A stretch of DNA of 64,000 bases from the NCBI RefSeq assembly GCF_013122565.1, contig NZ_CP053258.1; one strand, 5' to 3'. This document shows, one piece after another, positions 11,001-39,821 of the stretch. The number at the start of each line of letters is the position of its first letter. The stretch's first letter is position 1. This stretch comes from Escherichia coli (GTDB lineage: Bacteria; Pseudomonadota; Gammaproteobacteria; Enterobacterales; Enterobacteriaceae). The translations under genes and the position numbers were made by a program. Under the pieces are notes generated by a model that worked only from the letters and a program-made list of their open reading frames with translations, was not told where the DNA came from and made no database searches.

Positions 11001-11329
11001 TGGGACCCCCTTTTGATTTCTTGTTTGACACTTGCAGTTGCCAGACCGCAAGGTGTTTTAACAAATCAAAAGGGGTTTTAATAACTGGCTCAAAGCTGAA
11101 AGCTTTCCGGAACCCCCAGTCTAGCTGGGGGTTTTCTGTGCACAAGAAGAGCCCGTACGAAAGTACGGGCTTTTTTTTCGTATATTGCACACACCGGGTG
11201 CCCCCGCCCACGTCTGTTAGGGCGAGGGGAAATCGTACACATCAACTGTCTGATTGCTCAGTCAACAATCAAAATGCGCAAGAGAGTACAGAACATATAT
11301 GCGCTATCTGGTCACTTCCTGTAACTTCC

Positions 11330-13267: not shown

Positions 13268-14656
13268 TTATAGATAGTATTTAAAGCCCAAATAAAGGCC
13301 TAACGTGTCGCCAAAAAGCGCAAATTCAGAATACCGACTTCCCAGCGCGCTATAGCCACCGGCATAGGCTTCAAGCTGGTTACTGATAGCGCTGAGCGGC
13401 GTGGAATAATGCAGGCCCAGCAACGTACTGCCATCAATGAGATTGACCACCAGCGAAGGCTGCAGCGTCGACTCTCCCGCCAGCGGCAGACTGGCCCAGG
13501 CGTTCAGATAGTGCTTACCCTGCAGCATCCCCTGATTGGCGGTATTGCTGATTTCTGAAGCCATCAGGTATTTGTAAGAATCAAATGCCTGATCCAGTGG
13601 CGCATAGCCGGTTGTGGTATTGAGGAAGTCAATTAACTCGCGCTGCTGACGCTGTTCAGCGCGCGAATAACCCTCGCTCTGAAAGTAATACTCAACGCCA
13701 AACACGCTGAAATTATCACTGGTGTACTGCCCACCCAGCGCCAGCTCCACGCCGCTTTCATCTTTCGTTTCATAGAGCGAATCCGGAAACTGATATTCCT
13801 CGACCTGCGCCGTCTCACGGTGGGAAAGATGCCGCCATTGCTGGGAGCGGTGGTAGGCTGCGTCGACATTCAGCGTAAGCTGCGGGGTGTAGTGATAACT
13901 GTCAGACAGCGCGAGTGACGGCGATGGTCCGAGCCGCACATTGACTGTCGGCGTGTGCTCACCAAAGCGATGATCGCTGAAGCTCAGCAGATAGGCTTCG
14001 TCGCTGTTTCCCTGCTGATTAGCCGACCAGTTGCCAGACGTCACATAGCGTTTGTCGATGGTGGCTAACTTCGGTATGACACTCGCCGAAAACGCATAAT
14101 CGCGTGTATCCACGCTCATTTTTGCGCCCCACGATGACGCCTGATACGCCGATGTCATTTTGGGATCGTGCAAACGCGTCGACTGGAATCCAGTGTAATA
14201 ATGCGTTTGCAAATCAGAAGGCGAACGCAAAAAGAACATTCCTGACGGCGCGGCAAATTTGCCTGCTTCAAATTGAACGCTGTCCGAGGCACTATAGACC
14301 AGACTGAAGCGGTTAATTAACGCACGCGTGCGGCTATCATCCGTTTCGAATTTCCCTGCAGGTTTAAGCGCATATTCGTTTATTCCATACAGATTGAGCT
14401 TAAGGTCCAGCGTATTGTCGATTATTGAACAACCACTATTGATGCCAATCCCCGCCTCCTGATAACCGTTGTGACGTGTGTAGGGATTTTTGCCTGCAAT
14501 CTGCCAGGCCGAAGCCTGTTTATTGACATAAGACACCTGCTCGTAGAGCGTCACATCGCTGTTTTGTGCCACCTCGTCACCTGACAGGCAATCCGCCTGT
14601 ACCGTCAACGGCAGCGCAACACACAGCAACGAAGAGATCTTCAGCGTGCGTTTCAT
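13268..14656 (-). CDS. Predicted outer-membrane beta-barrel protein, 462 aa
   Basis: Signal peptide MKRTLKISSLLCVALPLTVQA; Gly/Tyr/Ser-rich alternating pattern; function unknown. Confidence 0.45.
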   Translation of the reverse strand: MKRTLKISSLLCVALPLTVQADCLSGDEVAQNSDVTLYEQVSYVNKQASAWQIAGKNPYTRHNGYQEAGIGINSGCSIIDNTLDLKLNLYGINEYALKPAGKFETDDSRTRALINRFSLVYSASDSVQFEAGKFAAPSGMFFLRSPSDLQTHYYTGFQSTRLHDPKMTSAYQASSWGAKMSVDTRDYAFSASVIPKLATIDKRYVTSGNWSANQQGNSDEAYLLSFSDHRFGEHTPTVNVRLGPSPSLALSDSYHYTPQLTLNVDAAYHRSQQWRHLSHRETAQVEEYQFPDSLYETKDESGVELALGGQYTSDNFSVFGVEYYFQSEGYSRAEQRQQRELIDFLNTTTGYAPLDQAFDSYKYLMASEISNTANQGMLQGKHYLNAWASLPLAGESTLQPSLVVNLIDGSTLLGLHYSTPLSAISNQLEAYAGGYSALGSRYSEFALFGDTLGLYLGFKYYL

Positions 14657-15441
14657 TTCGCACCTCGCTGAATATACTCTTTGGTGAAATGAAACTCTGG
14701 CAGCGATTCCAGACGAACATCGCTGTACTCCATCACTGAATAGTTATTGCCGTGACGGACATCGGTAACGGTTATTTTCATGGGTCGCGTTTTCCCCAGC
14801 ACCGGCTGGAAATCCTGATACAACACTTCTTTTATTAACTGGTCATCCTGCGAGTAATAGGCCGCCTTCCACGGGCGATTATCACCGTCTTTTTCAACGT
14901 AATAGATAACCTTCGGCCAGGTGATATCCGCCGATTTACGCACAAGCGCCAGCTTGTAACACTGCTTTTCAGCACAAGAGACTTCCCCCACAAGGGTCGA
15001 GTCATAGGCATATTCAAAGTTAGTGACAATGACATCGCCGTTAGAGATTTGCCCAATTAATCTTTGTTGCCGTGAAATAGGCATCGGACGTCGCAGTTCC
15101 GGCGTGTAAAACCATAAATCGTACCAGTCGGAAAGCATGACTTTTCCTTTATCTCGCGGCGGATAAATAAAACGCACCAGCGAGCGCGCATCCGCTTTTT
15201 CATTACCCAGCGGTTTCATAAAACGCATGGAAATATCGAGGACCTGTTTATTCTCTGGCTGGGTTACGCCCGCTTTATATTCCGTTACCGTCAGCGTGTA
15301 ACGAAACGGTTTATTCGGCGAACGAATTTCGTCAGCGCGACGAATTATATCCAGCGCCTTATTATCTGTGCTCGCCGCCTGAACGCACGACGTAGCGAGC
15401 CACAGGCAAGCAAACCACTTGCCGTAAAAAGCCATATTCAT
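14653..15441 (-). CDS. Secreted LolA-like / lipoprotein-sorting-like protein (tentative), 262 aa
   Basis: Signal peptide; size and context next to FtsX-type permease and OMP; assignment by context and recollection of similar clusters. Confidence 0.4.
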   Translation of the reverse strand: MNMAFYGKWFACLWLATSCVQAASTDNKALDIIRRADEIRSPNKPFRYTLTVTEYKAGVTQPENKQVLDISMRFMKPLGNEKADARSLVRFIYPPRDKGKVMLSDWYDLWFYTPELRRPMPISRQQRLIGQISNGDVIVTNFEYAYDSTLVGEVSCAEKQCYKLALVRKSADITWPKVIYYVEKDGDNRPWKAAYYSQDDQLIKEVLYQDFQPVLGKTRPMKITVTDVRHGNNYSVMEYSDVRLESLPEFHFTKEYIQRGAK

Positions 15442-15449
15442 AATCAGTC

Positions 15450-16760
15450 CTACGAGAATTTAAATGCGTCAGAAATATTCAGCCGGGAAGCACGTAAAGC
15501 CGGTAACACAGAGGCACCTGTTGCTGTCAAAATAGGTAATACCACCGTCACCCAAATCAATTCCGGGTTACTGGTTTTTATAAAGGCGGTATAGCCGATG
15601 GTTTGTCCCGGCGATGGCGGCATCGCAATACCATAAAGATTAATAATCCAGGCTAGCGCCCCCCCCACCAGTAGGCTACCGACTGCGCCAATCACACCAA
15701 TAAAAATGCCTTCCGTCAGAAACAAGCGCGTGACGTGAAGCGGCTTCAGGCCTATGGCACGCAGAGTGGTAATTTCACGGGTGCGTTCAGCAATGTTCAT
15801 TGCCATCGAATTGCTGATCATGAAGATGACAATCAGCGCAACAATCAGCTTGATGAAGAAATAGATCCCCGACAGTAACCCCTCAACCTGTTGATAAAAG
15901 AGTGAAACATCACGCCAGTCTTTGACCACCAGCGGCAAATGATTGCGTTCAATAAACTGACGCAGCTTAGCGCTAAACGCCGCGGTGTCATCCTCTTTTA
16001 GCAGGATAAGCACTTTGCTGACGCCATCCGTACCCATCATGCGCTGCGCGGTGTCCAGCGGGATCTTCATCGCGACATCGTCATAATCTTTAATGCCTGA
16101 CTCAAAAATGCCACGCAGTTTTAGCGACAATGCGCCCTGCCCGCCCGCCGTGTTGACGACCATCACATCCAGCCAGTCGTCATATTTCGCATTCAACGTT
16201 TTCGCCAGACCGCTGCCCAGGGTGATTTCATCACCTTTTACCCGGGAAAGATCGCTCCCCGCGATAATCTTATCGAACGAGCCCAGCTTTAAAGCGGGTA
16301 ACGGCTCCACCCCTAGCGCGGAGAAATAGCTGGAGGTTTCGCTCTCGTAATGTGAAATTACGCCAGTAAACTCCAGTTGCCCGGAGAGCGTGGAAATATC
16401 CGCCGCCAGCGTCGGGTCCGACAAAATAGCTTTCTTTAACGCCGCATAATCGGCAATCAGGCTCTTATTTTTATTCGACGTTTCAAAATAGTGCTGATTG
16501 TAAATCTGTACATGACCAATATTGGTACGAATCGTCTGCTCTTTCAGGATCCAGAAAGAGTAATCAATAAATCCGCCATATAAAAAAATTGCCACGCCAC
16601 CCAATACAATGGCGGTTATAGTAGAAAAAGAGCGACGCTTGTGGCGAAAGAGATTCAAAAATGCAAATTTGACATCTCGTGAATAAAACAGAAGCTGATA
16701 AAACACAAAAAACAGAATCAGCAGCAGAACGCAATTAACAGCTAAAATTTCCCCGGACAT
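15450..16760 (-). CDS. ABC transporter permease, FtsX/MacB/LolCE family (N-terminal TM, large periplasmic domain, C-terminal 3-TM bundle)
   Basis: Topology and C-terminal FtsX-like segment; start codon abuts stop of upstream gene. Confidence 0.65.
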   Translation of the reverse strand: MSGEILAVNCVLLLILFFVFYQLLFYSRDVKFAFLNLFRHKRRSFSTITAIVLGGVAIFLYGGFIDYSFWILKEQTIRTNIGHVQIYNQHYFETSNKNKSLIADYAALKKAILSDPTLAADISTLSGQLEFTGVISHYESETSSYFSALGVEPLPALKLGSFDKIIAGSDLSRVKGDEITLGSGLAKTLNAKYDDWLDVMVVNTAGGQGALSLKLRGIFESGIKDYDDVAMKIPLDTAQRMMGTDGVSKVLILLKEDDTAAFSAKLRQFIERNHLPLVVKDWRDVSLFYQQVEGLLSGIYFFIKLIVALIVIFMISNSMAMNIAERTREITTLRAIGLKPLHVTRLFLTEGIFIGVIGAVGSLLVGGALAWIINLYGIAMPPSPGQTIGYTAFIKTSNPELIWVTVVLPILTATGASVLPALRASRLNISDAFKFS

Positions 16761-17417
16761 TTACTCACCTTTCATCAGCGGCAGCAGTACCTGGGTTAAC
16801 TCTTCACTATCCCATTCTGGTACAACATTAAAATCATGCGTCAGCGACTGCGCTAGCGCGGTGTTTTGCCCTTTAATTTGCGCCAACAACGCATTCGCGC
16901 GGGTGGTGTCCTTGCAGTGACGTAATGCGCGATAACGCATCGCCAGAATATGGTCGCGGATCGTTGTCGTCCATATCGCCGGGTCAGCCAGCATGTGTTC
17001 GGTATCTTTGACTGTCACCACGCAACGCCCTGAATCTGCGGGTAAATAGGCATCTACGCGGGCACGTAAATACCGTACGCGTTGATTTTTCTCCTGCAAA
17101 TCCACCGCTTCATCCAGCCAGAAAAAGCCGCTTTTGGCGTATTCTGAGGCATGGATAAAATCGTTTGTTGCCGCATAACTGTCTGCCTGACGCAGTAAGC
17201 CATAGGCATAAAAAACCAGCGCCACCACATTGTGCCTGGCGTCATACTCTTTCTTTAACGCCTCGGTCAGCATCGCCAGCGCGGCAGGCTGCGCCGGGAG
17301 CCCCTGTTGCAGAACCTGGTTAACGGCGTCGGGTGTTGCCGCGTAAATCTTCGGGGCCAAAAACGCCGCGTACAAAAAGACGCCGATGAGCAAAAATCCT
17401 TTATGCATCTGAGTCAT
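16761..17417 (-). CDS. Secreted hypothetical protein, 218 aa
   Basis: Signal peptide [26 protein letters not shown]; overlaps ABC ATPase gene end. Confidence 0.4.
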   Translation of the reverse strand: MTQMHKGFLLIGVFLYAAFLAPKIYAATPDAVNQVLQQGLPAQPAALAMLTEALKKEYDARHNVVALVFYAYGLLRQADSYAATNDFIHASEYAKSGFFWLDEAVDLQEKNQRVRYLRARVDAYLPADSGRCVVTVKDTEHMLADPAIWTTTIRDHILAMRYRALRHCKDTTRANALLAQIKGQNTALAQSLTHDFNVVPEWDSEELTQVLLPLMKGE

Positions 17418-18108
17418 GAATCAATACTCCATCCTGAATTTCAACCACTCGCCGTGCCCGCGCTTTTAATTCGCTGGAGTGCGTGGAAATAACAAATGTG
17501 GTGCCTGTCTGCTGATTAATCGTCAACAGCAGGTCCAAAATAGCCTCGCCGGTTGACAGGTCTAAATTTCCCGTCGGTTCATCGGCAATGACCACCATCG
17601 GTTCGTGTGCCAGTGCCCGGGCGATGGCGACACGCTGTTGTTGACCGCCCGATAGTTGCCCAGGTTTGCGATCGCCAAAACCGCTTAATCCGACGCTATC
17701 GAGATAATGCAGCGTCCGTTCAGTGGCTTCTTTTTTACTGAACTGGCCATTAAGCACCAATGGGAAATAAACGTTATCGAAAACATTTAATACCGGCATA
17801 AGATTAAAAAACTGAAAAATAAAACCCAGATGTTTTCCACGAATCACAGCTAACTGCTCTTCCGGCAGTTGGTTCAGTAATTTATTTAAAAATATCACCG
17901 TTCCGCTGGTCGGTTTATCAATACCCGAGAGAATATTCAACAGAGTACTTTTACCACTGCCTGATGGCCCACACAGTGCGAGAAATTCGCCTTTATTGAT
18001 ATCAAGATTAATGCTTTTAAGCGCATCAACCTTTCCTGCCCCGGCACCATAACACTTGTAAATGTTGCTAAGCGAAATAGCGGGCAACGATTTAATAGTA
18101 GATTGCAT
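17401..18108 (-). CDS. ABC transporter ATP-binding protein (LolD/MacB-type), ~235 aa from ATG 18108
   Basis: Walker [10 protein letters not shown], signature [15 protein letters not shown], Walker B VVIADEPT; start chosen downstream of the 317-aa gene stop with AGGA upstream. Confidence 0.85.
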
Positions 18109-22928: not shown

Positions 22929-24089
22929 TTACGCAGCGCTTTTATTTTTTGACGCGTCGATATAACTGTGCTCAGTTGGGCTAACCAACATGCTCAGGTT
23001 ATAAATAAACGGCATACATTTTGATTGCGCCGGAATAATTCCGTGAGCAGTTTGAATTTCGTAGCCGCTGATGTCAGACCAGGCGTAATCATTATCCAGC
23101 AGAGTCAGGGCAATGAAACGCTGCAACGCTGGGGAAAAGAGTGCCTTCACGATATAGCCCACGTCTTGACCTTCCACCAGCACACGATCGCCAGCCTCAA
23201 TGCCTTCGCATTCTTCCTGAGCGATCATGCCGATGAGTTTATTACCGGTATACTCCTGGGAGAGCTCTGTCACCGCGTCCTTGCCAATAAAATCATCTTT
23301 GTCGTACTGCACCGCCCACTGCATCTGCAACTGAACCGGATTCACTGCCTGACCTTCCCAGAGGCTGGCATCCCAGCACGGATTTTCGAGGCGTACGATT
23401 TTTTGATAATCCAGGCCGCCGGTCTGCATCAGGTATTTCTCGCCGACGGTTAACAGTTTTTCCCACTGCTCCGCCAGTTTCGCCTGCTCACCGATGGTCA
23501 TGTACGCATACTCACCGTGTTTACCACAGCGGAAGATCAGCAGATCCTCCTCGGTATTCATGTATTCGTAGTAAGGCAGGCCAATAACGTCAAAGCCATG
23601 AATTTCAGACATGATCTCCCAGGAGTATGGGCCTTCGAGCAGGATTGCCCCCCAGTTGTTTTCCCGCATATCCTGAATTTCAGGCATCGATTGAATATCC
23701 AGTTCTTCCGCTTTTTCGAGAATGGTATTCATGCTGGCGATCAATTCGGCAGCCGAAATATCTTCTGAAAGCAGGTAATAACCGTCAATGCTGCACAGCA
23801 CATAGACGTCTCCGCGAATGGTGCCCTCTTCATTCAACACCAGTGAGTAGATTGCCTGCTCATCACGAATGATGGAGACATCTGCGGAAACCAGCTGGTT
23901 GATCAGCGCCCAGGCATCATCGCCCATGACGCTAACAATAGAGAGGTGAGAATAGTCCACCAGCAGCGCGTTTTCACGAACGGCTTTATATTCGGTCATA
24001 GCATCGTGATAAGAAGAAGGTAGGGTACGGTTGTTATATACCCCCATTACCGCATTATTTTTCAAGTGAAATTCAGCAAGAGATTTCAT
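22929..24089 (-). CDS. GcvT-like aminomethyltransferase-family (folate-binding) protein, 386 aa
   Basis: Overall resemblance to glycine-cleavage T family N-terminus; assignment tentative. Confidence 0.5.
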   Translation of the reverse strand: MKSLAEFHLKNNAVMGVYNNRTLPSSYHDAMTEYKAVRENALLVDYSHLSIVSVMGDDAWALINQLVSADVSIIRDEQAIYSLVLNEEGTIRGDVYVLCSIDGYYLLSEDISAAELIASMNTILEKAEELDIQSMPEIQDMRENNWGAILLEGPYSWEIMSEIHGFDVIGLPYYEYMNTEEDLLIFRCGKHGEYAYMTIGEQAKLAEQWEKLLTVGEKYLMQTGGLDYQKIVRLENPCWDASLWEGQAVNPVQLQMQWAVQYDKDDFIGKDAVTELSQEYTGNKLIGMIAQEECEGIEAGDRVLVEGQDVGYIVKALFSPALQRFIALTLLDNDYAWSDISGYEIQTAHGIIPAQSKCMPFIYNLSMLVSPTEHSYIDASKNKSAA

Positions 24090-24124: not shown

Positions 24125-24406
24125 TTAATCGTTGTTCTTTTGAATAACGAAGGTGGCCAGACTATTGATACTGCGCATATAGGACGGGTCGTCACTTTCG
24201 CTGATCTTGATATCAAATACTTTATCCAGCAGAACGACAATTTCCGTTGCATCGACGGAGTCCAGTTTAAAACCATTACCAAACAGCGCAGTATCATCAT
24301 CAATTTGCGCTTCATCGCGTTGAATATTCAGTCGCTGGATGATCTCAGTTTTAATGGTCATCAGAACTTCTTTACGCTGTTCAATAGCGTCATTCATGGT
24401 AGACAT
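24125..24406 (-). CDS. Acyl carrier protein
   Basis: FKLDSVDATEIVVLLD phosphopantetheine-attachment motif; small acidic protein. Confidence 0.75.
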   Translation of the reverse strand: MSTMNDAIEQRKEVLMTIKTEIIQRLNIQRDEAQIDDDTALFGNGFKLDSVDATEIVVLLDKVFDIKISESDDPSYMRSINSLATFVIQKNND

Positions 24407-24427: not shown

Positions 24428-24976
24428 TTACTTGGTTTCACGGAAATTGATAATGGTGCCCTGACTAATCAGCTTTTTACCGACGTACGCGGTCACGGAA
24501 TAGTGTTTAAAGCCACTGGCATCCGAAAAAGCCAATTTGCTGACAACATCAATAGAATCACCCGGATAGGCGATATCTTTAAATTTCAGGTTCTGAGCAG
24601 CCAGCACGCCGCGTACCTGGCTGCGCCGGGTACGGATAATCTCCAGCATTTCAGGGCGGTGAATGCGTGCGTGAATATCACGTAACGACTTCAGCTCTTC
24701 CTCAAAACGTTCGCGCCAGATATCGCAAATGTCGGTCAGGAAAGAGAGATACTCGCTGGCCTGGCCGAAGATTTCCGAAATAATCACCCCGGGCATAATC
24801 GGATCTTCCGGGAAATGCCCCAGTAGATACGGTTCGTTATAGGTGACGTGCTTCACGACACTGACAAAGCCATTTTCACCGTATTTATAATCTGCAATTT
24901 TATCGACCATCAGCAGCGGCTGACGCCAGCCGCCCATTTCGAGGAAGATTTTCGAAGGAATCGTGTATTTGGACAT
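24428..24976 (-). CDS. FabA/FabZ-like hot-dog beta-hydroxyacyl-ACP dehydratase
   Basis: HFPEDPIMPGVIISEIFGQA matches the FabZ catalytic His region. Confidence 0.65.
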   Translation of the reverse strand: MSKYTIPSKIFLEMGGWRQPLLMVDKIADYKYGENGFVSVVKHVTYNEPYLLGHFPEDPIMPGVIISEIFGQASEYLSFLTDICDIWRERFEEELKSLRDIHARIHRPEMLEIIRTRRSQVRGVLAAQNLKFKDIAYPGDSIDVVSKLAFSDASGFKHYSVTAYVGKKLISQGTIINFRETK

Positions 24977-24979
24977 AAA

Positions 24980-25744
24980 TCACCGCATGACCAGGCCGCC
25001 ATCGATAACGATGGTCTGGCCGACAATGTAGCTGGAGGCAGAGGAACTTAAGAAGACGATGGTGTTCGCCACTTCTTCACATTTACCCAGACGGCGTAAC
25101 GGGATGGTACTGGTTACCGCACGGACCACTGCGCGGGATACTTTTTTCACCATTTTCGATTCAATCATTCCCGGTGCGACCGCGTTGACGCGCACGCCCC
25201 AGGGTGCCATTTCTGCTGCCAGCGTGCGGGTGAAGCCTAGGATCGCCCCTTTTGACGCGCTGTAATTCGCCTGACCGACGCTTGGGATCAGCGCTGCAAT
25301 AGAGGCAACGTTAATAATGGCGGGATTTTCTGCCGCACGAAGCAACATCAGCGCGTCTTTCGTCAGACGGAAAATGCTGAACATGTTGGTTTCGATAACT
25401 TGGGTGAAATCCTCATAGCTCATCGAGGCAAACAGGCTGTCTTTAACGATGCCCGCGTTATTCACCAGCACATCAATCTTGCCAGCTTCGCGCTCTATCT
25501 GTTCGCACAATGCGCTCACACTCTGGGGGCAGGCGAGATCGCACTGCACAATATGCAGTTTATCGCCTGCAGGATGGCTTGCTTTCAGCGCCGTTAATTG
25601 CACGTCGTTGGATTTATAGAGCGCATAAACATCGCAGTTCTGCTCCAGATATTTTTCACAAATACCCAGTCCAATATCACCACTGGCTCCTGTCACCAGT
25701 ACGGTTTTTTCATTTAAATCATTATATTTGTACATATTCATCAT
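24980..25744 (-). CDS. 3-oxoacyl-ACP reductase-like SDR (FabG family)
   Basis: TVLVTGASGDIG Rossmann motif, NNAG, YSASK catalytic Tyr-Lys; start set at internal Met to avoid overlap with PPTase. Confidence 0.85.
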   Translation of the reverse strand: MMNMYKYNDLNEKTVLVTGASGDIGLGICEKYLEQNCDVYALYKSNDVQLTALKASHPAGDKLHIVQCDLACPQSVSALCEQIEREAGKIDVLVNNAGIVKDSLFASMSYEDFTQVIETNMFSIFRLTKDALMLLRAAENPAIINVASIAALIPSVGQANYSASKGAILGFTRTLAAEMAPWGVRVNAVAPGMIESKMVKKVSRAVVRAVTSTIPLRRLGKCEEVANTIVFLSSSASSYIVGQTIVIDGGLVMR

Positions 25745-25754
25745 ATATGTTGAG

Positions 25755-26123
25755 TTAATAAACGATGACAGTCGCAATGGCGTGGGTACGGCAATGCGAA
25801 ATACTCAGGGAGTTATTTTGCAACCCCTGCCCGAGAAAAATTTCTTGTAGTCTTCCGGAAATAACGAAATAAGGTGCTTTGGCCGCATCATGCTTTATTT
25901 CAATATCCTGGAAACGTACGCCATCACGAAAACCACAACCAATCGCTTTAACTAACGCTTCTTTCGCCGCCCAGAATCCAGAGGCCCGTTCATAATCAGG
26001 TTCTGCAGGATTAATGAGTAAGCGCTCATGAGCAGTATAAACACGCTCATAAAAAGCCATCTCTCCATTAATAATGGCTTTGGTTATTCTGGCAATTTCA
26101 ACAATATCTGTTCCTATTCTCAT
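25755..26123 (-). CDS. AcpS-type 4'-phosphopantetheinyl transferase (holo-ACP synthase)
   Basis: [14 protein letters not shown]-terminus and [11 protein letters not shown], both AcpS-like; 15 nt after tpsB stop with AAGGA SD. Confidence 0.8.
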
Positions 26124-26138
26124 TAGTCTCGTTATCCT

Positions 26139-27758
26139 TTACATTTGGTACGAAAAATTAAAATTTATATTCACCCGATCAATATCTAATGTCGCCGGGT
26201 ACTTTAATGGGGTAGAAACGGAAAAGTTATACTCAAGACTTTTTATGTTTCCATCAATACCAACTGCCGCGCCCACCAGTGATTCATCGCCATAAGAAGC
26301 GTCCTGATACACTTGCCCAAAATCAAGACCGGCATAATAATTAGCTTTCATTCCAGGCAAAGGAAATGCCAGCGTATTTTTTATATAAAAACCATCATTC
26401 CCTGACAAACCTACGCTATTTTCAAACCCGCGAATACTCCAACGATCGCCAACTGTAATTTGATCTTGCAAAGTCAGTTCACACGGTGCGTACTGGGCAA
26501 AAAAAGCGGTATTGTAATATCCATTATCTATTTGTCGGGTATAGTTACCCTCAAAATTAAAGATATTGCTTACCGGGCTAACGTCGCCATATTGCATATT
26601 CGGCGTTTTTTCACCACCGAACCAAGTTAAAAAGCGTTGCCACGAGAGGGTTGAATCCCAGAACGCGCCGGGTAACTGTTGCTTATAATTTAGCCCCAGC
26701 TTGATATTTCCCATATCCCGCGCCTGTAATGTCAGCTCCTCACCATTAAGCGTGTAATTCGACTTTCGTCGAATGAGTTCTGCACTCCCGGCGAATTTTT
26801 TTGTTTTATCGCGATAAACGGTACGCGTCGCCTTTGCGCTCAAGTATTCGCTGGTGCCAACATAATCCAGCGAGATGTACGAAAGCGGAATCACCTGCTG
26901 CGATTTACTTTTGCTATAGAAAAAGCCGTACTCCCAGTACCCCACCGGAATGGAATAATAGCTACTGACGTTTTCGTACTGTCCAGTAGTACTACGCGTA
27001 CCGGCGAGATAAAACAGATCCCCCATTTTCGCTGGATTAAACAGATAACCCACCGCGGTTGTCTGGTAACGGCCCGTTTCTTCATCGCCCCAATTGTTGT
27101 AACTTGCCCGAACGCTCCAGTTTTTGCCCCGGTGTGTATCAATATGAACGATGCTGTAACCATCCCGTGTTCCCGGTTCAATATTAATTTTCACATCAAC
27201 GTCAGGTACTCGCTGAAGATTTTCCAGCCCCTGTTCAATATCGCGAATATTGAGAATATCGTTACGCTGAAAAGGTAACATCCATTCACTGATATCATTA
27301 CCTTCCACAATCGTTTTTTCTATCTTCCCGGCATTAACCTGGAAACGTAGCTTGCCTTTAGAAATATCCTGCGAAGGGATACTAATTCGCGTTGTGATAT
27401 ATCCGGCATTAATATAATAATCCTGCAAGGCAGCAGCAATTTTTTGCACACCAGCACTACCGACACAACGTCCGGCAATCGCTTTTTGCACTTCAGAAAT
27501 AAACTGACCATCCAGAAAGTTATCTTCCAGTTCAATCCGATTAATGATAAAGCAATTCTTTTCCTGCGGTAGATCACTCAGAGTAAACGCATTACGTTGT
27601 GCATTTGAGTAAACATCTTTTTTTTCTAATTTATGCGCGCGTAACGTGCTTTCATCTGCATTTTTTTGCTGCTTGATCAAATTATCAATACTGTCTTTCG
27701 CTGCAACCTGAAAACAACAAAGAATGAGCAGCAAACCAAAATTAAATCGTAATTGCAT
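26139..27758 (-). CDS. TpsB outer-membrane transporter (ShlB/FhaC/HecB family)
   Basis: Signal peptide, POTRA-region length, loop-6 SIRGFE (VRGY/F) motif. Confidence 0.8.
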   Translation of the reverse strand: MQLRFNFGLLLILCCFQVAAKDSIDNLIKQQKNADESTLRAHKLEKKDVYSNAQRNAFTLSDLPQEKNCFIINRIELEDNFLDGQFISEVQKAIAGRCVGSAGVQKIAAALQDYYINAGYITTRISIPSQDISKGKLRFQVNAGKIEKTIVEGNDISEWMLPFQRNDILNIRDIEQGLENLQRVPDVDVKINIEPGTRDGYSIVHIDTHRGKNWSVRASYNNWGDEETGRYQTTAVGYLFNPAKMGDLFYLAGTRSTTGQYENVSSYYSIPVGYWEYGFFYSKSKSQQVIPLSYISLDYVGTSEYLSAKATRTVYRDKTKKFAGSAELIRRKSNYTLNGEELTLQARDMGNIKLGLNYKQQLPGAFWDSTLSWQRFLTWFGGEKTPNMQYGDVSPVSNIFNFEGNYTRQIDNGYYNTAFFAQYAPCELTLQDQITVGDRWSIRGFENSVGLSGNDGFYIKNTLAFPLPGMKANYYAGLDFGQVYQDASYGDESLVGAAVGIDGNIKSLEYNFSVSTPLKYPATLDIDRVNINFNFSYQM

Positions 27759-27846
27759 TATCTTCTCAAACTAAATAAAGACAGCAGCAACCCCTGCGTG
27801 ACATGACGCATTAATATTAAATGCCACTGCTGTCTTTGGTTACATC

Positions 27847-30800
27847 TTACATGCCGACAATAGTACCGGTGTTGTCAGTTTCGTTTGCTTCTAACGCTAA
27901 ACCGTAGAAGCCACCGAGAACAGCGTCTTTACCGCTATTCGTAACCTTATTTGCCGATACGCCAGCGACACCATAACTCAGCATATTGAGGTAGTTATAA
28001 ATATTACCGGTGGTTTTAACACCCAGAGAATAATCACCCACAATATTTCCACGGTTATTAATGTCATTCACGGCATTGATCGCGATGGTTTGTCCCAACA
28101 TATTACTGTTGCTGTTGTTGGTAACATACTTCTGCGTATCAATAGTCAGCGCAGTTCCCGCCACAATGTCTTTAAAGTTCTCAACACCGTTCAGGGCATT
28201 AATGGTCAGCGCGTTGTCCGCTGCGATGGCATTACGGTTATACAGCGTGCCTTTCAGAACATTGAAATGCACATCCCCTTTACCGCTGATCCAACCATAG
28301 TTAGTGACGCTGTTATCAACGTTCAGATCTAGGTTTTTGTCAGACGCAATCACGCCCGTGGCGGTATTGTCTTCCAGACGACCATCACTGGCGTTACTCA
28401 ACGACGCCGCATAAACATCGAGATTACCGGCGCTGTAAGTGGTGGCATAGTTGTTGTAGAACATACCAGCCGCACGGATGATGGCATCAGCCCCACTGCT
28501 AAGAAGCGCGCGGGTATTATCCAGCGTTCCCCTGGACAGCAGATTAAGCGGACCATTTTCAGCGATGATGCTGCTGTTATTGTTGTAGACGTTCTGAGCA
28601 GAAAGCGTGACACCTTCTTTACCCACAATGCCACCAACGTTGTCAGTAATACCGAAAACTTCACCGTTATAACGCAGGAAGTTATTCCCGTCGCGGTTTT
28701 CGAGGTTGCCGCCAGCGTTAATAACCAGCTTTTTATTCGCCGCGATCAGCGCAGTGTTGTTGTAAATCGTCGATTTAGCATCGACAGAAACATTCTCACC
28801 GGCAATCAAACCATAGGCGTTGTCTACAATGTTCGCCGTCAGAGTCACGTCGCCCGTTTCAGAGGTCAGCGAGCCCTTAAAACTGTCGTAGTTGCCCGTC
28901 AGTGCCAGCGTGACGTCGTCATAACCACGAATTTCACCGTAGTCGTTGTTCAGATTGCTGCCTTTTACAGACAACACGCCGTTCAACGCATGCAGCTTAC
29001 CGCGGTTGTTACCCACGTTGCCCTTCGAATCGATAATCAGATCGCCTGTCGCTTCGATGGTCGCGTTATTGTTGGCCACGCTATTTGCCGTTAATGCGAC
29101 ATCCCCATAACCCACCATATAGAGATAGTTATACAGGTTGCCTTTGGTTGTCACGTTCAGGTCAACATCACTGACAATGTTGCCACGGTTGTTGATATCG
29201 TTAACCGCGTTAATAACGATATTCTGCCCCACCATATTGCTGTTGGAGTTGTTGGTCACATGGCGATTGGTGTTCATCGTCAGGTCGCCGCCAGCAGAAA
29301 TATCCTTCCAGTTTTCAATACCGTTCAGTGCTGCAATGTCCAACCCCTTTTCAGCCGCAATAGTATTGCGGTTGTACAGGTTGCCATTTTTCACCGTGAC
29401 ATCAACATCACCTTTACCGCTGATCCAGCCGTAGTTGGTAAGGCTATTCACCACTTCCAGTGACAGATTTTTGTCAGATGCAATGAACCCGGTCGCATTG
29501 TTATCGATCATCGTACCGCTGCTGCTGTTTTGCAGCGTGGTCGCGTCGATATCCAGGTTGCCCGCACTCCAGGTGGTAGCGTAGTTGTTGTAATACGTTC
29601 CGCCAACCTGAATAGATGCATCCGCCCCGCTGATGACCAGAGCTCGCGTGTTGTCGAACGTGTTCTGCGCCTGCAGAGTCAGAGGACCATCCTCAGCGAT
29701 AATACGGCTGTTGTTGTTATAGATGTTCTGCCCGGAAAGCTCGATGCCTTCCTTGCCGACCATTCCACCCGTTTGCTGAGGCATGCCGAAGTACTGACCA
29801 TAAGCATTACCGAAGTTATTGCCATCGCGGTTTTCGATACTGCCGCGCGCATTTATCTTCAGTTTTTTGCTGGCCACGATCAGCGCTGTGTTGTTATTGA
29901 CGCCAGACATCGACTCCATCGTGATGTTCTGCCCCATCATGAAGCCGCCGTGGTTATCCACGGAGTTGGCTAACAGGGAGATATCACCCTCTTCAGAGCT
30001 GATCACGCCAATATTATTGGTCAGGCTGCCGCCAACGGCGACTTCAATACCCTGCTTACCGCTGATCCCCCCGGTATCGTTACGCAGAGAGCTTCCCTTG
30101 ATAATCACTTTGCTGTTGGACAGAATTTTGCCCGCATAGTCGTCGATCGTGCTGTAACTTGACAGGGAGACGTTGCCATTAGACGCAATCTGTCCGCCAT
30201 TGTTATTGATGTTGTTCGCACCAATTTCTACGCCGGTATCTGCAATAATGCCCAGAGAGTCAGAACTGCCGGTATCGGCGGTTTTGGTTGAACCATTATT
30301 TACGCTACCTGCCGCACCAATAACGATATGCCCGGTGGACGAACGGATCAGACCTTTGTTGTTATCCACATTACCGTTACTGATAATGGCGATATCGCCA
30401 GTGGTCTGGATATCACCGCTGTTGTTATTCAACGCGCCTGATTCAAGCCCCACATAACCGCCGCGAATCTGACCATTGCTGTTGTTGAGCGTTCCGGTTT
30501 TCAGCGCCACGAGCCCCGCTTCAATCCCGACAGAACTCCCTTTACCAGAGTTAATCAGCGTGGCGTTATTGGTATCAACCGCCAGCATACCTGCTGCGGC
30601 GAGCTTGCCGTTGGTGTTATCAATCGTGCCACTGTTAACGTAGATATCGCCCATCGTAGAGATGTTACCCGCACGGGTATTCACGATAGTATTCTTGTTG
30701 GTATTAAGCGAGATAGTGCCTACAGATGTCACCGTACCGGTGGTGTTATCCAGAGTACCATTTGTTGTCAGGTTGATCGTGCTTGCAGACTGAATCTGGG

Positions 30801-31659
30801 CGTTACTGTTTAACAGGTTACCTTTGGAATCGATGCTGACACCATTAACCCCCCCAGCAATAACGCCGAGGTTGCGAACCCCCACACCTTTCTCGGTGCT
30901 GACCAGACTGATTTTGTTCGCATACATTCCGCCCAGTTTGGCAACATCTACGCTGTAACCGTTACGGGACCCCGTGGCGGATACGCTACCGGTCACCTGG
31001 CCTGCGGCATTAACATAGTTATTGCCAGCAACAACGTTCAGCTCATCGGCAGACACTTTGCCGTTAACTACCACGTTACGGGACAGAATTTCTGTCGGGC
31101 TGGCGTTATCCAGTTTACCGAGCGTAATGGTACCGCCGTTCACGGAGTAACCGGCCAGCTTGTCATCCTGGATATCCGGCGTCCCGGTGGTTAAGGTAAG
31201 TTTACCTGTATTGATTGAACCGCCACCGTTTACAGTAATACCATTCGGGTTGGCAATAATCAGATCCGCTTTATCCCCTGCAACTTCCATCATCCCATTA
31301 ATGGTTGAAGGATTTTTGGAAGTAACCTCATTCAGGATCACCTTCGCCGACCCGGAGGTCAGATTACTGTTTCCCTGAATATTTCCGGCAAGTGAAGTAC
31401 TGGATTCATTAGCGCTGTTATTGAAAACGACACCATTTTTATCAACGTTTAGGTTATCCCAGATATTATGAGATAAACCGCTACCGTTAGGTTTGTTGAT
31501 GTCAACGACTGGCACACCATTGGCGTTATATACCGTTCCATTTTTTATGACTAATCCCGCCGCTTGAGAAGCTACAGGAAAAGACAACATCATAAGTATA
31601 GCAATAGGGGTTAATGCTTTACCCACCGTTGCTTCCTTACTTAAATTTATCATCGCCAC
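27847..31659 (-). CDS. TpsA exoprotein (filamentous haemagglutinin/haemolysin-like), 1270 aa, with internal tandem duplication
   Basis: N-terminal TPS domain with ANPNGI motif; Asn/Gly/Thr-rich beta-helix repeats; no recognisable C-terminal toxin domain. Confidence 0.85.
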   Translation of the reverse strand: MAMINLSKEATVGKALTPIAILMMLSFPVASQAAGLVIKNGTVYNANGVPVVDINKPNGSGLSHNIWDNLNVDKNGVVFNNSANESSTSLAGNIQGNSNLTSGSAKVILNEVTSKNPSTINGMMEVAGDKADLIIANPNGITVNGGGSINTGKLTLTTGTPDIQDDKLAGYSVNGGTITLGKLDNASPTEILSRNVVVNGKVSADELNVVAGNNYVNAAGQVTGSVSATGSRNGYSVDVAKLGGMYANKISLVSTEKGVGVRNLGVIAGGVNGVSIDSKGNLLNSNAQIQSASTINLTTNGTLDNTTGTVTSVGTISLNTNKNTIVNTRAGNISTMGDIYVNSGTIDNTNGKLAAAGMLAVDTNNATLINSGKGSSVGIEAGLVALKTGTLNNSNGQIRGGYVGLESGALNNNSGDIQTTGDIAIISNGNVDNNKGLIRSSTGHIVIGAAGSVNNGSTKTADTGSSDSLGIIADTGVEIGANNINNNGGQIASNGNVSLSSYSTIDDYAGKILSNSKVIIKGSSLRNDTGGISGKQGIEVAVGGSLTNNIGVISSEEGDISLLANSVDNHGGFMMGQNITMESMSGVNNNTALIVASKKLKINARGSIENRDGNNFGNAYGQYFGMPQQTGGMVGKEGIELSGQNIYNNNSRIIAEDGPLTLQAQNTFDNTRALVISGADASIQVGGTYYNNYATTWSAGNLDIDATTLQNSSSGTMIDNNATGFIASDKNLSLEVVNSLTNYGWISGKGDVDVTVKNGNLYNRNTIAAEKGLDIAALNGIENWKDISAGGDLTMNTNRHVTNNSNSNMVGQNIVINAVNDINNRGNIVSDVDLNVTTKGNLYNYLYMVGYGDVALTANSVANNNATIEATGDLIIDSKGNVGNNRGKLHALNGVLSVKGSNLNNDYGEIRGYDDVTLALTGNYDSFKGSLTSETGDVTLTANIVDNAYGLIAGENVSVDAKSTIYNNTALIAANKKLVINAGGNLENRDGNNFLRYNGEVFGITDNVGGIVGKEGVTLSAQNVYNNNSSIIAENGPLNLLSRGTLDNTRALLSSGADAIIRAAGMFYNNYATTYSAGNLDVYAASLSNASDGRLEDNTATGVIASDKNLDLNVDNSVTNYGWISGKGDVHFNVLKGTLYNRNAIAADNALTINALNGVENFKDIVAGTALTIDTQKYVTNNSNSNMLGQTIAINAVNDINNRGNIVGDYSLGVKTTGNIYNYLNMLSYGVAGVSANKVTNSGKDAVLGGFYGLALEANETDNTGTIVGM
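27972..30240. repeat. Two tandem ~1134-bp repeat units inside tpsA (approximate bounds)
   Basis: Antisense ORFs at 28061-28300 and 29138-29434 end in the same SPLPLIQP peptide 1134 bp apart; corresponding TpsA segments (~370 aa each) align with high identity. Confidence 0.7.
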
Positions 31660-31922
31660 TAACGTTTTCCTTATTGATGCTATTCATTTTGGACATGCAG
31701 ATCACTTTTGATGACTCACGGAATATCAGCAAAAATGATTGCGGCAAATCCTATCACCTGGCGCAATAAAAAATCACGAAAAATAAGCTGAAATAAGGAT
31801 TCAAAAAAACAACTAAGAGTTATTGTTTTTTCATCGAACGGCGAAGAACCTAACTTACTAAAACACAATAATTTAAAAGTCCCCCATCCTTGCTCCTTGG
31901 GTGATAAAAAATCCAATTTAGA

Positions 31923-31973
31923 GGATGTCTGAAATGATATGTAGTTTTCTGTACGACATCATTTCAGACATCC
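31923..31973. repeat. Perfect 16-bp inverted repeat ggatgtctgaaatgat / atcatttcagacatcc, 19-nt spacer
   Basis: Read directly; ~265-315 bp upstream of tpsA start within a 1.4-kb AT-rich intergenic region. Confidence 0.9.
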
Positions 31974-33051
31974 GAATAAAACAACAAAGTTGGTGAGTTA
32001 CAATTAATTTAAATCTTATTATTTGATTAACAAAGCATCATCATTACTGCATCTTATTCTCTATATCTTTTACGTCGGGGTAGATTCTTTATGGTCATTA
32101 CGGGCAGGCGACATTTCATTATATTACCATTTGCATTCACGCTTGTAACCCTTAAGAGTTATATAAAAAGGAAAGAGTTCTTGCTCATGGTATTACTGAG
32201 ATCGGATTAACCATGAGGTTAGCTATATAGAGAGCTTTGGCTTTGCGACAATTGGCTTAAGCAGCCACATTATGCCTGGCTTATCGTTGAAAGGGAGAAA
32301 GAAGAGCAAAACGGTTTGGCAAGCTTTCATTCCCATCTAATAGCAATCACCGCTATACATCATCCCTTAACGTATTCTGGTCTTCATAAAAATGTTATTC
32401 TAAATTAAAGATTGTAATGATTTTAATAATGTTGTTATTATTTTGCAACAAATCAATATAACACAATGATTATTCGCGATTTTTTATTAGTTAAGAGGAA
32501 TTGTTTTTACAGATTGCGCTACAATTCCGCTCATTTCTCACCACAGGAAAAGCTGAAGTAATCTTAAATGACTGTATTAACCCTTTTCTCCGCTGCCAGC
32601 ACTCTTAAATATCGTTGTTTTATTCTTATAAAAACGGCTTTTTTGACATAAAAAGTAATAGGTTCAGCCATTATGCAGAATTTACAACCTGAGAAAATCG
32701 CAAAAAACACTCTTATTCAGAATAAAACTCTGTTTATCATCTTTCGGTAAGCATTAAATTACTATATTACCGTTCAACATGAGTATGAATGAAAATTCAG
32801 TTGTTATACATGTGATGAATGTCATATATTGTGCTCATCGATTGCAGGACATCGCTATTCTTTTAGAGATACAGATATCACGCTGTTACTCTCTAATATA
32901 AAGAACACGCAAAGATTAGTTGTGTTACTGCAGTTGTTATGTCGCATATGGAATGCCCATTGTTACATCTTTAGTAAAAAGCTTTATTCACTTTCAAAAT
33001 TTTTACTCCATGAAGATAGGCTGTTTTGCTGCAAGCAATTGAGTTAGTGCA

Positions 33052-33675
33052 ATGAACAAGAACTTACTAACAAGGGTAATTATCATTTCGGATGATCTAT
33101 ATTACCTTCAGGGATTAAGTGCAAAACTAGGTCACCATTATCGTTTTTTTATTGAGTGTTTTTTTTGTTCTCAAAATGCATGCAATAATGACCTAAGTAC
33201 ACTTAGATTTGACAACCGCTTTACAAAAAACGTACTTCTTGTCGCAGTGGATGACGTAAGTATACTTGCAAAACTGCCAGATTTGGCCAGGTTTTTAATG
33301 ATTGTTTCACTAAGAAAGATGAAAAACAGAAATATCTTCTTTTCACTTTCAGAGCAAACATTCATTAGCCGATATATAAAATTGAATAAACTCATTACTT
33401 TGATTAAAAGTACTGATAAAGACCAGCAAGTCAGGCAGGTGACTCTGACAAGGTATGAGTGGGATATCTATTACTTATTTTTTAAGATAGATAACAAAAG
33501 AATATTGCACACCCTGCTAAAAAAGGATGTCAAGTATATTAGTCACTATAAAATATCAGTTTTTAATAAGTTTGAAATTGCTTGTGATAGTGATGGCTTT
33601 TACATTTTCAAGGCACTTATACAGTTAAGGAGATTTACCCGTTTTAAAAACGTCAGATTGTATCAATTGCATTAA
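33052..33675 (+). CDS. Putative transcriptional regulator (LuxR-type C-terminus, tentative), 207 aa
   Basis: AT-rich ORF directly upstream of fimbrial major subunit; weak LuxR-HTH-like C-terminal segment. Confidence 0.35.
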   Translation: MNKNLLTRVIIISDDLYYLQGLSAKLGHHYRFFIECFFCSQNACNNDLSTLRFDNRFTKNVLLVAVDDVSILAKLPDLARFLMIVSLRKMKNRNIFFSLSEQTFISRYIKLNKLITLIKSTDKDQQVRQVTLTRYEWDIYYLFFKIDNKRILHTLLKKDVKYISHYKISVFNKFEIACDSDGFYIFKALIQLRRFTRFKNVRLYQLH

Positions 33676-33717
33676 TTAACTCGTTCTATATTAACTCTAA
33701 ATTTCAAGGATATTAAT

Positions 33718-34278
33718 ATGTTTTCTACTTTCAAAAAAGCAGCTCTGCTGGCAGCTATTGCATTACCTTTTTCAACTATGGCTGCGCCTACAGTCACTTT
33801 TCAGGGTGAAGTAACCGATCAGACCTGTTCCGTAAATATCAACGGTCAAACCAATTCAGTAGTATTGATGCCGACCGTAGCCATGGCTGACTTCGGTGCA
33901 ACTTTAGCTGATGGTCAGAGCGCAGGCCTGACGCCGTTTACGGTTTCTGTGTCTAACTGCCAGGCTCCAACTGGTACAGATCAGGCAATCAACACCACCT
34001 TCCTGGGCTACGACGTTGACGCTAGCACGGGTGTTATGGGAAACCGTGATACCAGCAGCGATGCGGCGAAAGGCTTTGGCATTCAGTTAATGGATTCCAG
34101 CACTTCTGGTAACCCAATAACTCTGGCTGGCGCGACTAACGTACCGGGTCTGACCCTGAAAGTTGGCGATACCGAAGCCAGCTACGACTTCGGTGCGCGT
34201 TACTTCGTTATCGATAGCGCTGCTGCCACTGCCGGTAAAATTACCGCTGTCGCAGAATACACCCTGAGCTACCTCTAA
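33718..34278 (+). CDS. Fimbrial major subunit (FimA-like)
   Basis: Signal peptide, TVTFQGEVTDQTCSV N-terminal motif, ~19 kDa. Confidence 0.8.
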   Translation: MFSTFKKAALLAAIALPFSTMAAPTVTFQGEVTDQTCSVNINGQTNSVVLMPTVAMADFGATLADGQSAGLTPFTVSVSNCQAPTGTDQAINTTFLGYDVDASTGVMGNRDTSSDAAKGFGIQLMDSSTSGNPITLAGATNVPGLTLKVGDTEASYDFGARYFVIDSAAATAGKITAVAEYTLSYL

Positions 34279-34342
34279 TTAATCTACTGGCTGGCAGTAA
34301 ATGTCAGCCAGTATTTCTTTGCACAATTAATAGTGATTTTTC

Positions 34343-35065
34343 ATGGACATGGAAAAGATAAGAATGAACATTTTTGCATATTTACTGGTACTTGTATTTT
34401 CCATGAGCATGAGCAGCAGCGCGTTTGCCAGCGTGGTAATGACCGGAACCCGTATTATTTTCCCTGGTGACGCAAAGGAAAAAACCATCCAGTTGCGAAA
34501 TACCAGCGATCAGCCCTATATCATTAATATCCATGTTGAGGATGAACGTGGTTCTGACAAGAATATACCGTTTATGCCAACCCCGCAGACATTTCGCATG
34601 GAAGCTGCCGCAGGTCAGGCGTTACGCCTGCTCTACACTGGTGATAATTTACCGCAGGATCGCGAGTCTGTTTTCTGGTTTAGTTTCAGTCAACTACCTT
34701 ATCTGAATAAGAACGATAAAAGTCAGAACCAGCTCATCCTGGCCCTGACTAATCGAGTCAAAATTTTCTATCGTCCCAGCTCAATTGTCGGTAAATCCAG
34801 TGACGCGCCAAAAAACCTGACTTACCAAGTAAAACAGAACCGCATTGAAGTGACGAATCCCACGGGCTATTACGTCGTGATTCGCGCCGCTGAACTGCTT
34901 AATAACGGTAAAAAAGTCCCCCTCGCGAATTCCGTCATGATTGCTCCTCAAGGCAAAACTGAATGGACACTACGCACTGGCATCAGCGTCGCTCCCGGTG
35001 CGCAGATTCATTTAGTGACCGTCAATGACTATGGCGTAAATGTCACGTCTGAGCATGCCTTATAA
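34343..35065 (+). CDS. Periplasmic fimbrial chaperone (PapD-like)
   Basis: Signal peptide and typical chaperone N-domain pattern. Confidence 0.8.
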   Translation: MDMEKIRMNIFAYLLVLVFSMSMSSSAFASVVMTGTRIIFPGDAKEKTIQLRNTSDQPYIINIHVEDERGSDKNIPFMPTPQTFRMEAAAGQALRLLYTGDNLPQDRESVFWFSFSQLPYLNKNDKSQNQLILALTNRVKIFYRPSSIVGKSSDAPKNLTYQVKQNRIEVTNPTGYYVVIRAAELLNNGKKVPLANSVMIAPQGKTEWTLRTGISVAPGAQIHLVTVNDYGVNVTSEHAL

Positions 35066-35117
35066 GCTCTTTCCCCTTTTTTGAGCGGTATCCTTTTTCA
35101 CGCACGAGTATGTCGAG

Positions 35118-37640: not shown

Positions 37641-37655
37641 TACAGAGAAAACCCG

Positions 37656-39676: not shown

Positions 39677-39821
39677 TGCTCTGAGTGGTATGTAAACTCA
39701 TCGCGATGGTTCAACGCTAACGAATAACCACTATACCCACCTGAAGTACCGGAAGTGGAGAAATGACAACATCTCTCCACTCCATTTTCCAGTCAAAACA
39801 CCTCAACGCAGCCAAAAATCG

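Follow-up and report, generated by a model that had tools for sequence, protein, structure and literature searches.

Two genes lying between positions 26,139 and 31,659 of a 64,000-nucleotide stretch of Escherichia coli DNA (contig NZ_CP053258.1 of RefSeq assembly GCF_013122565.1; the window, hereafter, is this whole stretch) encode a secreted exoprotein and its outer-membrane transporter, and they are the pair already known as OtpA and OtpB. Taken as a whole, the best explanation, which we hold with good confidence, is that this two-partner secretion (TPS, or type Vb) pair heads a cassette of genes for the synthesis and export of a lipid or polyketide, and that OtpA would most likely be a partner of the product. 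An initial annotation, made from the sequence, had recognised a TPS pair without toxin or immunity partner; it overlooked that the pair is a named and studied system, and that the genes downstream belong to a cassette. This linkage appears to be the new point. Literature on a cluster combining TPS and lipid genes yielded only passing remarks in which an 'operon-like structure' is mentioned (PMC1635569), besides a region that antiSMASH calls similar to aryl-polyene (APE) clusters (PMC9205054), and the linkage does not appear to have been used previously to interpret OtpA.

The open reading frames and their translations place both genes on the minus strand: otpA (tpsA) at 31659..27847, with a GTG start and 1270 aa, and otpB (tpsB) at 27758..26139, with 539 aa. 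OtpA is identical to ECs_1282 of strain Sakai at 1250 of its 1270 residues (about 98%, 20 differences), and OtpB to ECs_1283 at 526 of 539 (about 98%, 13 differences), with no gap in either alignment. Lengths are equal, the chromosomal island is the same (O-island 47, or OI-47, comprising z1528-z1556, where the pair sits between dgcT/ycdT and ycdU), and so are the neighbours on both sides. We are therefore dealing with the same system, the window carrying a non-O157 allele: the 6-kb otpAB region shares 99.9% of its DNA sequence with baboon isolate PapRG-04-4 and about 98% with O157:H7. It is found in 382 of 5426 complete E. coli genomes.

ECs1282-1283 go by the name otpAB in a preprint (bioRxiv 10.1101/2020.04.13.038984) which, in its summary of Choi et al. 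(2007), describes a genuine TPS system; its account further has OtpAB clustering outside both the haemolysin subgroup and the adhesin subgroup. The entry on the pair in a 2017 review (PMC5422565) records export by Sec and OtpB-dependent secretion of OtpA, gives the function of OtpA as 'Unknown', and cites the system for the uncoupling of translocation across the inner membrane from that across the outer one, with detectable periplasmic intermediates. As far as these accounts go, otpAB has been in use since 2007 as a model of the kinetics of type Vb secretion. The sequence comparison thus identifies the pair as one already characterised, the biological role of which has been left unassigned in the literature.

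What may give access to this role is the company that the pair keeps. Homologues of OtpA (45-66% identity) were followed in six organisms, Enterobacter mori, Aeromonas veronii, Pantoea alhagi, 'Neisseria sp. Ec49-e6-T10', Acinetobacter sp. ANC 4558 and Klebsiella aerogenes, and each stands ahead of the same set of genes, arranged in one order. Counting E. coli, the distance between tpsB and the gene for a phosphopantetheinyl transferase (PPTase) stays between -1 and 23 bp in seven genera. The upstream neighbours, by contrast, differ in all six organisms, ranging from wza-wzb-wzc to another TPS system or housekeeping genes. The reverse query, a scan of GTDB genomes with the GcvT-like protein of the cassette, yielded 21 loci with an identity of at least 56%, in Kosakonia, Enterobacter, Mixta, Izhakiella, Buttiauxella, Tenebrionibacter, Serratia, Leclercia, Silvania, Klebsiella, Rahnella, Acinetobacter and an unclassified enterobacterium. 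Every one of them has tpsB and keeps the whole order as far as the FabD-like gene; tpsA, with 847-1328 codons, stands directly upstream in 19. The order is thus fixed across the 27 loci sampled outside E. coli, in 26 genomes and about 18 genera and with varied flanks, and the cassette appears to pass from one genome to another as a whole. Between genera the biosynthetic proteins are 70-86% identical, OtpA and OtpB 44-67%, the lower conservation of the latter being as expected for exposed proteins.

The family of OtpA and the cassette share the same narrow taxonomic distribution, and most of the genera that bear the cassette are associated with plants, insects or the gut. The last gene belongs here too: in Enterobacter mori and in Klebsiella aerogenes, the FabD-like gene is followed after 1-10 bp by a YcdU homologue, and members of the YcdU family occur only where the taxon has the cassette. 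By this comparison, the cassette reaches one gene, ycdU, past the published boundary of OI-47, which cuts through it. The passenger gene also varies in copy number and length. In Tenebrionibacter intestinalis (L018, 217-6240) the gene is doubled in tandem (862 and 852 aa), while in Mixta mediterraneensis (L012, 1613-5599) a tpsA frame of 1328 aa stops about 740 bp before tpsB, which a frameshift may explain.

One rival reading makes OtpA an adhesin or cytolysin that works by itself, placed beside lipid genes by co-transfer of an island, with no function in common. We think this improbable, though it deserves weighing. The TPS domain of OtpA is nearest, in sequence and in structure, to haemolysin HpmA and to the adhesin FHA (filamentous haemagglutinin), and according to the literature, OtpB alone is enough for OtpA to be secreted in E. 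coli K-12 (PMC5422565; bioRxiv 10.1101/2020.04.13.038984), so that secretion can do without the cassette. Several further facts weigh against coupling of the pair to the downstream pathway. Kosakonia pseudosacchari and K. quasisacchari keep the cassette and an intact tpsB (547-548 aa) with no tpsA next to it, and a search of these two loci (L015 and L016, 3900-7955) found no remnant of tpsA at E ≤ 1e-8; OtpA is therefore dispensable for the rest of the cassette. A divergent member of the family (P0373) heads a partly decayed cassette which lacks tpsB, and near a still remoter relative (P0363) there is no cassette. Co-transcription is proposed from spacing and strand, and the 88-bp gap between otpA and otpB holds a stem-loop. 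The GcvT-like enzyme has no assigned role. On the other side stand the order and the tight spacing, kept in the 27 loci among differing flanks, the presence of tpsB in every locus of the reverse query, and the single narrow distribution shared by the OtpA family and the cassette; moreover, beyond its TPS domain nothing in OtpA resembles solved haemolysin or adhesin structures over their full length. On balance, we find a functional coupling between OtpAB and the pathway downstream reasonably likely.

The divergent cassette just mentioned, in GCA_000314855.2 (L038, 10001-22526), has tpsA followed directly by the PPTase gene, without tpsB and without a gene call for the ketoreductase (KR). Its gene for the fused ketosynthase (KS) and chain-length factor (CLF) is shortened and lies beside a fragment of 47 aa; it looks like a decaying copy.

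Transporters of the TpsB type are known as translocators of proteins only. This bears on another way to read the conservation of tpsB in 21 loci out of 21, and its integrity in the two Kosakonia species: OtpB might be the component that serves the cassette, exporting the lipid across the outer membrane or displaying it at the surface, with OtpA an optional passenger. We give this little credit, as the cassette has a porin-like barrel of its own and as one divergent cassette retains tpsA without tpsB. The Kosakonia comparison, besides, covers adjacent tpsA genes only.

The one published suggestion on the role of OtpA, due to Choi et al. and known to us as the same preprint reports it (bioRxiv 10.1101/2020.04.13.038984), links it to the loc6 chaperone-usher fimbriae, of which it would be an accessory. 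In E. coli the loc6 genes do lie directly upstream of otpA, in divergent orientation. Among the genera examined, this is the only place where loc6 adjoins the TPS pair. In a screen of bacterial artificial chromosomes, the region ECs1272-1296, that is, OI-47, was enriched on spinach roots, and deletion of loc6 left this phenotype unchanged. The proposal now seems very unlikely, and we rejected it on the deletion result and on the variety of upstream neighbours elsewhere (wza/wzc, another TPS system, housekeeping genes). The enrichment on spinach roots, for its part, gives weak ecological support to a role of OtpA with the cassette.

How would the whole work? OtpA would be made with a Sec signal peptide, and in the periplasm OtpB would recognise its TPS domain through the POTRA domains; the protein would then be threaded through the OtpB barrel and fold outside the cell into a single long right-handed beta-helix. 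Of this scheme, OtpB-dependent secretion comes from the literature, and the domain make-up, the beta-helix fold of the model and the cassette linkage come from the present analysis, whereas co-transcription, the nature of the product and its link with OtpA are inferred. Transcription of the cassette might start in the AT-rich DNA that lies upstream of otpA, as no terminator-like site was found on the minus strand between 25500 and 33200; the Crozier 2016 transcriptome study has no ECs128x entries in its main text and supplements. As for the product, KS/CLF, KR and dehydratase (DH) without an enoyl reductase, together with the APE-like call of antiSMASH, suggest an unsaturated acyl or polyene-type molecule, which would cross the envelope by way of the ABC transporter, the LolA-like carrier and the porin-like barrel. 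OtpA would be the secreted or surface-exposed protein partner of this lipid or polyene, and the two might build a structure, at the surface or in the matrix, that serves colonisation, perhaps under the control of GrvA. That the structure is a composite of lipid and protein, in which OtpA binds the product, is attached to it, or is anchored by it, is a more tentative idea, to which we lean less than halfway. Should it be true, OtpA would be the first TPS passenger to depend for its function on a co-encoded lipid pathway, and this would explain why it falls outside the adhesin class as well as the haemolysin class, the ymdE-ycdU pair of K-12 being the scar left by deletion of the system.

The exoprotein itself has a simple architecture. 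In Pfam scans of residues 1-1200 and, separately, of the last 400 residues, the TPS domain PF05860 is found at residues 42-282 (E 2.9e-41) and the remainder shows Fil_haemagg repeats only; TIGR01901 scores 77 bits for a cut-off of 29.1. The TPS domain matches Fha30 (1rwr, E 8e-36) and HpmA265 (E 2e-33) in the sequences of the PDB, and Foldseek superposes it on HpmA265 with template-modelling (TM) scores of 0.88-0.91 at 33-35% identity, as well as on Fha30. It is the best-conserved stretch across the family. Past this domain, the PDB sequence search found no match, while Foldseek gave generic matches only. The protein has an internal duplication: BLASTP of the two halves aligns residues 564-863 with 942-1241 at 62% identity over 300 aa, without gap (E 3e-118), that is, with a period of 378 aa. 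The 892-aa alleles of E. coli (P0007 and P0008, 90% identical) are shorter than OtpA by exactly one such period (1270 - 378 = 892). Members of the family mostly have 847-912 aa; those of 1270-1290 aa, in E. coli, Enterobacter and Aeromonas, are longer because they have the extra module. This C-terminal module is nearly specific to the family. Among 1.84 billion representative proteins it has 42 matches at E ≤ 1e-3, of which the strong ones without exception belong to the family. An AlphaFold2 model of an 892-aa allele, built with 71 homologues (mean pLDDT 93.8), predicts a single continuous beta-helix from residue 36 to residue 892, with two tiny helices at 613-624. A conserved functional patch was sought outside the TPS domain and none emerged, conservation being moderate and even (0.5-0.7) along the helix. 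There is a small helical insertion, rich in aromatic residues (FGxxYGxYFGM), around residues 613-624.

The family can be aligned end to end, up to a shared tail with the consensus VTNSGxxAVLGGxxGLxLxA...G.VVG[ML] (in alignments of 14 and of 71 homologues), and nothing is therefore truncated. This bears on contact-dependent inhibition (CDI), which the initial annotation had set aside on three grounds, the absence of a toxin domain like the C-terminal domain of CdiA (CdiA-CT), the absence of a small immunity-like frame, and the gene order. It was right on each. No further Pfam domain is present in the last 400 aa of OtpA, and the model is beta-helix to its last residue. Pfam and motif searches found no PT-VENN, DUF637 or FHA-2 repeats in OtpA. 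The check for VENN-type motifs that it had proposed found no VENN, ELYN or QLYN there; three LYN and one VDNN (residue 431) sit within the beta-helix repeats. The frame that follows otpB (25755-26123, 122 aa) is a holo-ACP synthase, that is, a PPTase (TIGR00516, 79.6 bits for a cut-off of 59.8), and not an immunity gene, and tpsA does precede tpsB, by 88 bp. The C-terminus, finally, is conserved and not polymorphic. We are nearly certain that the locus is OtpAB acting as a TPS system and that it is not a CDI system.

Could it nevertheless be a degenerate CDI locus that lost its toxin tip and immunity gene? OtpA does have repeats of the FHA-1 type, its transporter is like CdiB, and one family member, P0084 of Mixta intestinalis, is labelled 'tRNA nuclease CdiA-2' by its source database. 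Yet P0084 (884 aa) can be aligned over its whole length with this family without toxins, and its label is probably an annotation error. As the order is tpsA-tpsB with a PPTase gene next, and as the model is a complete beta-helix, we regard such a degeneration as exceedingly improbable, and rejected it on a tail which the whole family conserves without toxin features. One statement of the initial annotation held in part. OtpA is short compared with CdiA or FHA, but 1270 aa is the long form within its own family. Its statement that the function is open agrees with the 2017 review; the cassette takes the candidates beyond a choice between adhesin and cytolysin.

OtpB matches POTRA_2 (1e-15), POTRA_3 (2e-13) and ShlB (5e-69). 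With a signal peptide and a TPS domain in the one protein, and an adjacent POTRA-POTRA-ShlB transporter, encoded on the same strand and downstream, in the other, the two proteins have all the sequence features that define a TPS system, as had been claimed; such strong matches also mean that these are not chance reading frames. The RNA of the gap between the genes folds with -26 kcal/mol (z-score -2.6 against shuffled sequences), and its hairpin could be a partial terminator, an attenuator or a stabiliser of the messenger that sets the ratio of OtpA to OtpB. The non-coding DNA upstream of otpA is presumed, from its place, to be its promoter and regulatory region. No RNA family was matched in a Rfam scan of 25000-34000, and promoter-like and terminator-like sites are no commoner in the region than in shuffled sequence, which makes them uninformative on the promoter. 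The composition of 31660-33051 is typical of horizontally acquired regulatory DNA, possibly bound by H-NS.

The cassette reads, in order, tpsA, tpsB, PPTase, KR, DH, acyl carrier protein (ACP), GcvT-like, KS/CLF, KS, x, ABC ATPase, x, LolCE-like permease, LolA-like, porin-like barrel, FabD-like and ycdU (Table 1), where x marks an uncharacterised protein. The genes downstream of otpB are all on one strand, with spacings from a 17-bp overlap to a 73-bp gap. The active-site motifs TACTAS, HGTGT and KSYFGH of the KS are found in the N-terminal half only of the 852-aa KS-CLF fusion. The 317-aa protein has no match in Pfam or NCBIfam, and a PDB profile search with the 462-aa protein gave nothing. 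Genes 11 to 15 (13268..18108) make up a putative export route. There is no enoyl reductase in the set. The pathway resembles that of APE clusters, which also have a type II KS/CLF, a KR, an ApeI-like DH (here a weak match), an ACP and a carrier of the LolA type, and are likewise without an enoyl reductase. It differs by an exporter of the ABC/LolCE type in place of an MMPL protein, and by the GcvT-like enzyme, the porin-like barrel and the TPS pair. Aryl-starter enzymes and an MMPL exporter were not recognised among the cassette proteins. While antiSMASH calls the region downstream of otpAB APE-like, the canonical APE cluster of E. coli O157 lies elsewhere, in S-loop 225 (PMC9205054).

Table 1. 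Features of the otpAB region, in coordinates of the window
Feature	Position	Strand	Description
otpA (tpsA)	27847..31659	-	Secreted beta-helix exoprotein, 1270 aa; signal peptide of about 33 residues; no Cys; high Asn/Gly/Ser/Thr
TPS secretion domain, residues 42-282	30814..31536	-	PF05860; motifs NEVTSKNPS and ANPNGI
C-terminal beta-helix module, copy 1, residues 564-863	29071..29970	-	BLASTP of OtpA halves
Module copy 2, residues 942-1241, then conserved tail 1242-1270	27937..28836	-	BLASTP of halves and family alignment
otpA-otpB intergenic stem-loop	27759..27846	-	Hairpin with 15-bp stem, then U-rich stretch
otpB (tpsB)	26139..27758	-	Omp85-type transporter, 539 aa; signal peptide, two POTRA, ShlB-type barrel
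Gene 3, holo-ACP synthase (PPTase)	25755..26123	-	TIGR00516; starts 15 bp past otpB stop
Gene 4, FabG-like ketoreductase	24980-25741	-	NCBIfam/Pfam
Gene 5, FabZ/FabA-like dehydratase	24428-24976	-	NCBIfam/Pfam
Gene 6, acyl carrier protein	24125-24406	-	NCBIfam/Pfam
Gene 7, GcvT-like aminomethyltransferase-family protein	22929-24089	-	NCBIfam/Pfam
Gene 8, 852-aa fusion of KS (Cys-His-His) and CLF-like part	20297-22855	-	NCBIfam fabF-like
Gene 9, second, variant KS	19069-20292	-	NCBIfam fabF-like
Gene 10, 317-aa cytoplasmic protein	18119-19072	-	No family match
Gene 11, LolD-like ATPase	17401-18108	-	
Gene 12, 218-aa signal-anchored protein	16761-17417	-	Uncharacterised
Gene 13, MacB/LolCE-like permease	15450-16760	-	
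Gene 14, LolA-like TP_0789 protein	14653-15441	-	
Gene 15, 462-aa porin-like outer-membrane barrel	13268-14656	-	Identified by fold search
Gene 16, FabD-like malonyl-CoA:ACP transacylase	12313-13257	-	NCBIfam fabD-like, E 4e-52
Gene 17, ycdU	11330-12316	-	Multi-pass inner-membrane protein; 4-nt overlap with FabD-like gene
Non-coding region from otpA to divergent loc6 operon	31660..33051	.	1.39 kb, AT-rich, 33-35% GC
grvA	41292-42104	+	ToxR/MarT-like regulator, 'global regulator of virulence A'; 95% identical to Sakai GrvA
fidL-like gene	42109-42600	+	99% identical to Sakai FidL-like protein

A candidate for the native regulator of the cassette is GrvA. In two Kosakonia species and in Buttiauxella (L015 4311-5649, L016, and L017 1020-2343), genes for pairs related to GrvA and the FidL-like protein (26-28% identity) lie immediately upstream of the cassette, in divergent orientation. 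In E. coli, loc6 and a gene of the short-chain dehydrogenase/reductase (SDR) family separate the grvA/fidL-like pair from otpA. The rest of the island and its flank (33052-40700 and 42700-52000) comprise the loc6 chaperone-usher fimbrial operon, the SDR gene, an EAL-domain phosphodiesterase (VmpA region), dgcT/ycdT and pgaABC; surface and biofilm determinants and enzymes of cyclic di-GMP metabolism thus cluster together here. At the other end, just past ycdU, genes for an IS200-family transposase and a tyrosine integrase (9160-11051) mark the position where SpLE1 starts in Sakai.

The intact FabD-like/ycdU region is present in 389 E. coli genomes only, while 2667 of the 5426 complete genomes, K-12 derivatives included, have just ycdU and, from the FabD-like gene, its final 340-525 bp. 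In K-12 this fragment is the pseudogene ymdE, beside insEF, and ymdE-ycdU looks like the remnant left by a deletion of the otpAB cassette. Two K-12 genes of unknown function are thereby recast as cassette remnants. More generally, the fixed linkage to a lipid/polyketide cassette in Gammaproteobacteria gives a testable lead to the function of OtpA, argues against its sole published interpretation as an accessory of loc6 fimbriae, and makes the cassette a candidate for what lies behind the unexplained enrichment of the OI-47 region on spinach roots.

It remains to situate OtpAB among known systems. With FHA/FhaC, HpmA/HpmB and ShlA/ShlB it shares the type of TPS domain (30-35% identity, TM 0.75-0.91 to Fha30 and HpmA265), a beta-helix passenger and a POTRA-POTRA-barrel transporter; past the TPS domain, no similarity of OtpA to FHA, HpmA or ShlA is detectable. 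ShlA and HpmA have about 1600 aa and FhaB about 3600, against the 1270 or about 890 of OtpA, and shlBA and hpmBA are ordered B then A, otpAB A then B. The likeness to the ShlA/HpmA cytolysins is thus confined to the TPS domain, which matches HpmA265, in a comparison that holds no full-length ShlA, and size and gene order differ. The CdiB/CdiA/CdiI systems share secretion of the TPS type and repeats of the FHA-1 type in the passenger. Unlike CdiA, OtpA is much shorter, has neither pretoxin motif, CT toxin nor immunity gene, and conserves its C-terminus. HMW1A/B/C and EtpB/A/C are TPS operons with a single co-encoded glycosyltransferase acting on the passenger, the hmw1 order being A then B. They provide a precedent for extra genes that act on a passenger within TPS operons. 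Their TPS domain is of another structural subtype (Foldseek matches are weak), and where they have one extra gene, the otpAB cassette has 15, for lipid/polyketide synthesis and export. Salmonella SPI-3 offers a last parallel: there, MarT activates misL. As with GrvA, a ToxR-like regulator and a FidL-like gene adjoin a type V secreted protein, and GrvA is reported to be 30% identical to MarT (PMC10877973); MisL, unlike OtpA, is a type Va autotransporter and not a TPS passenger.

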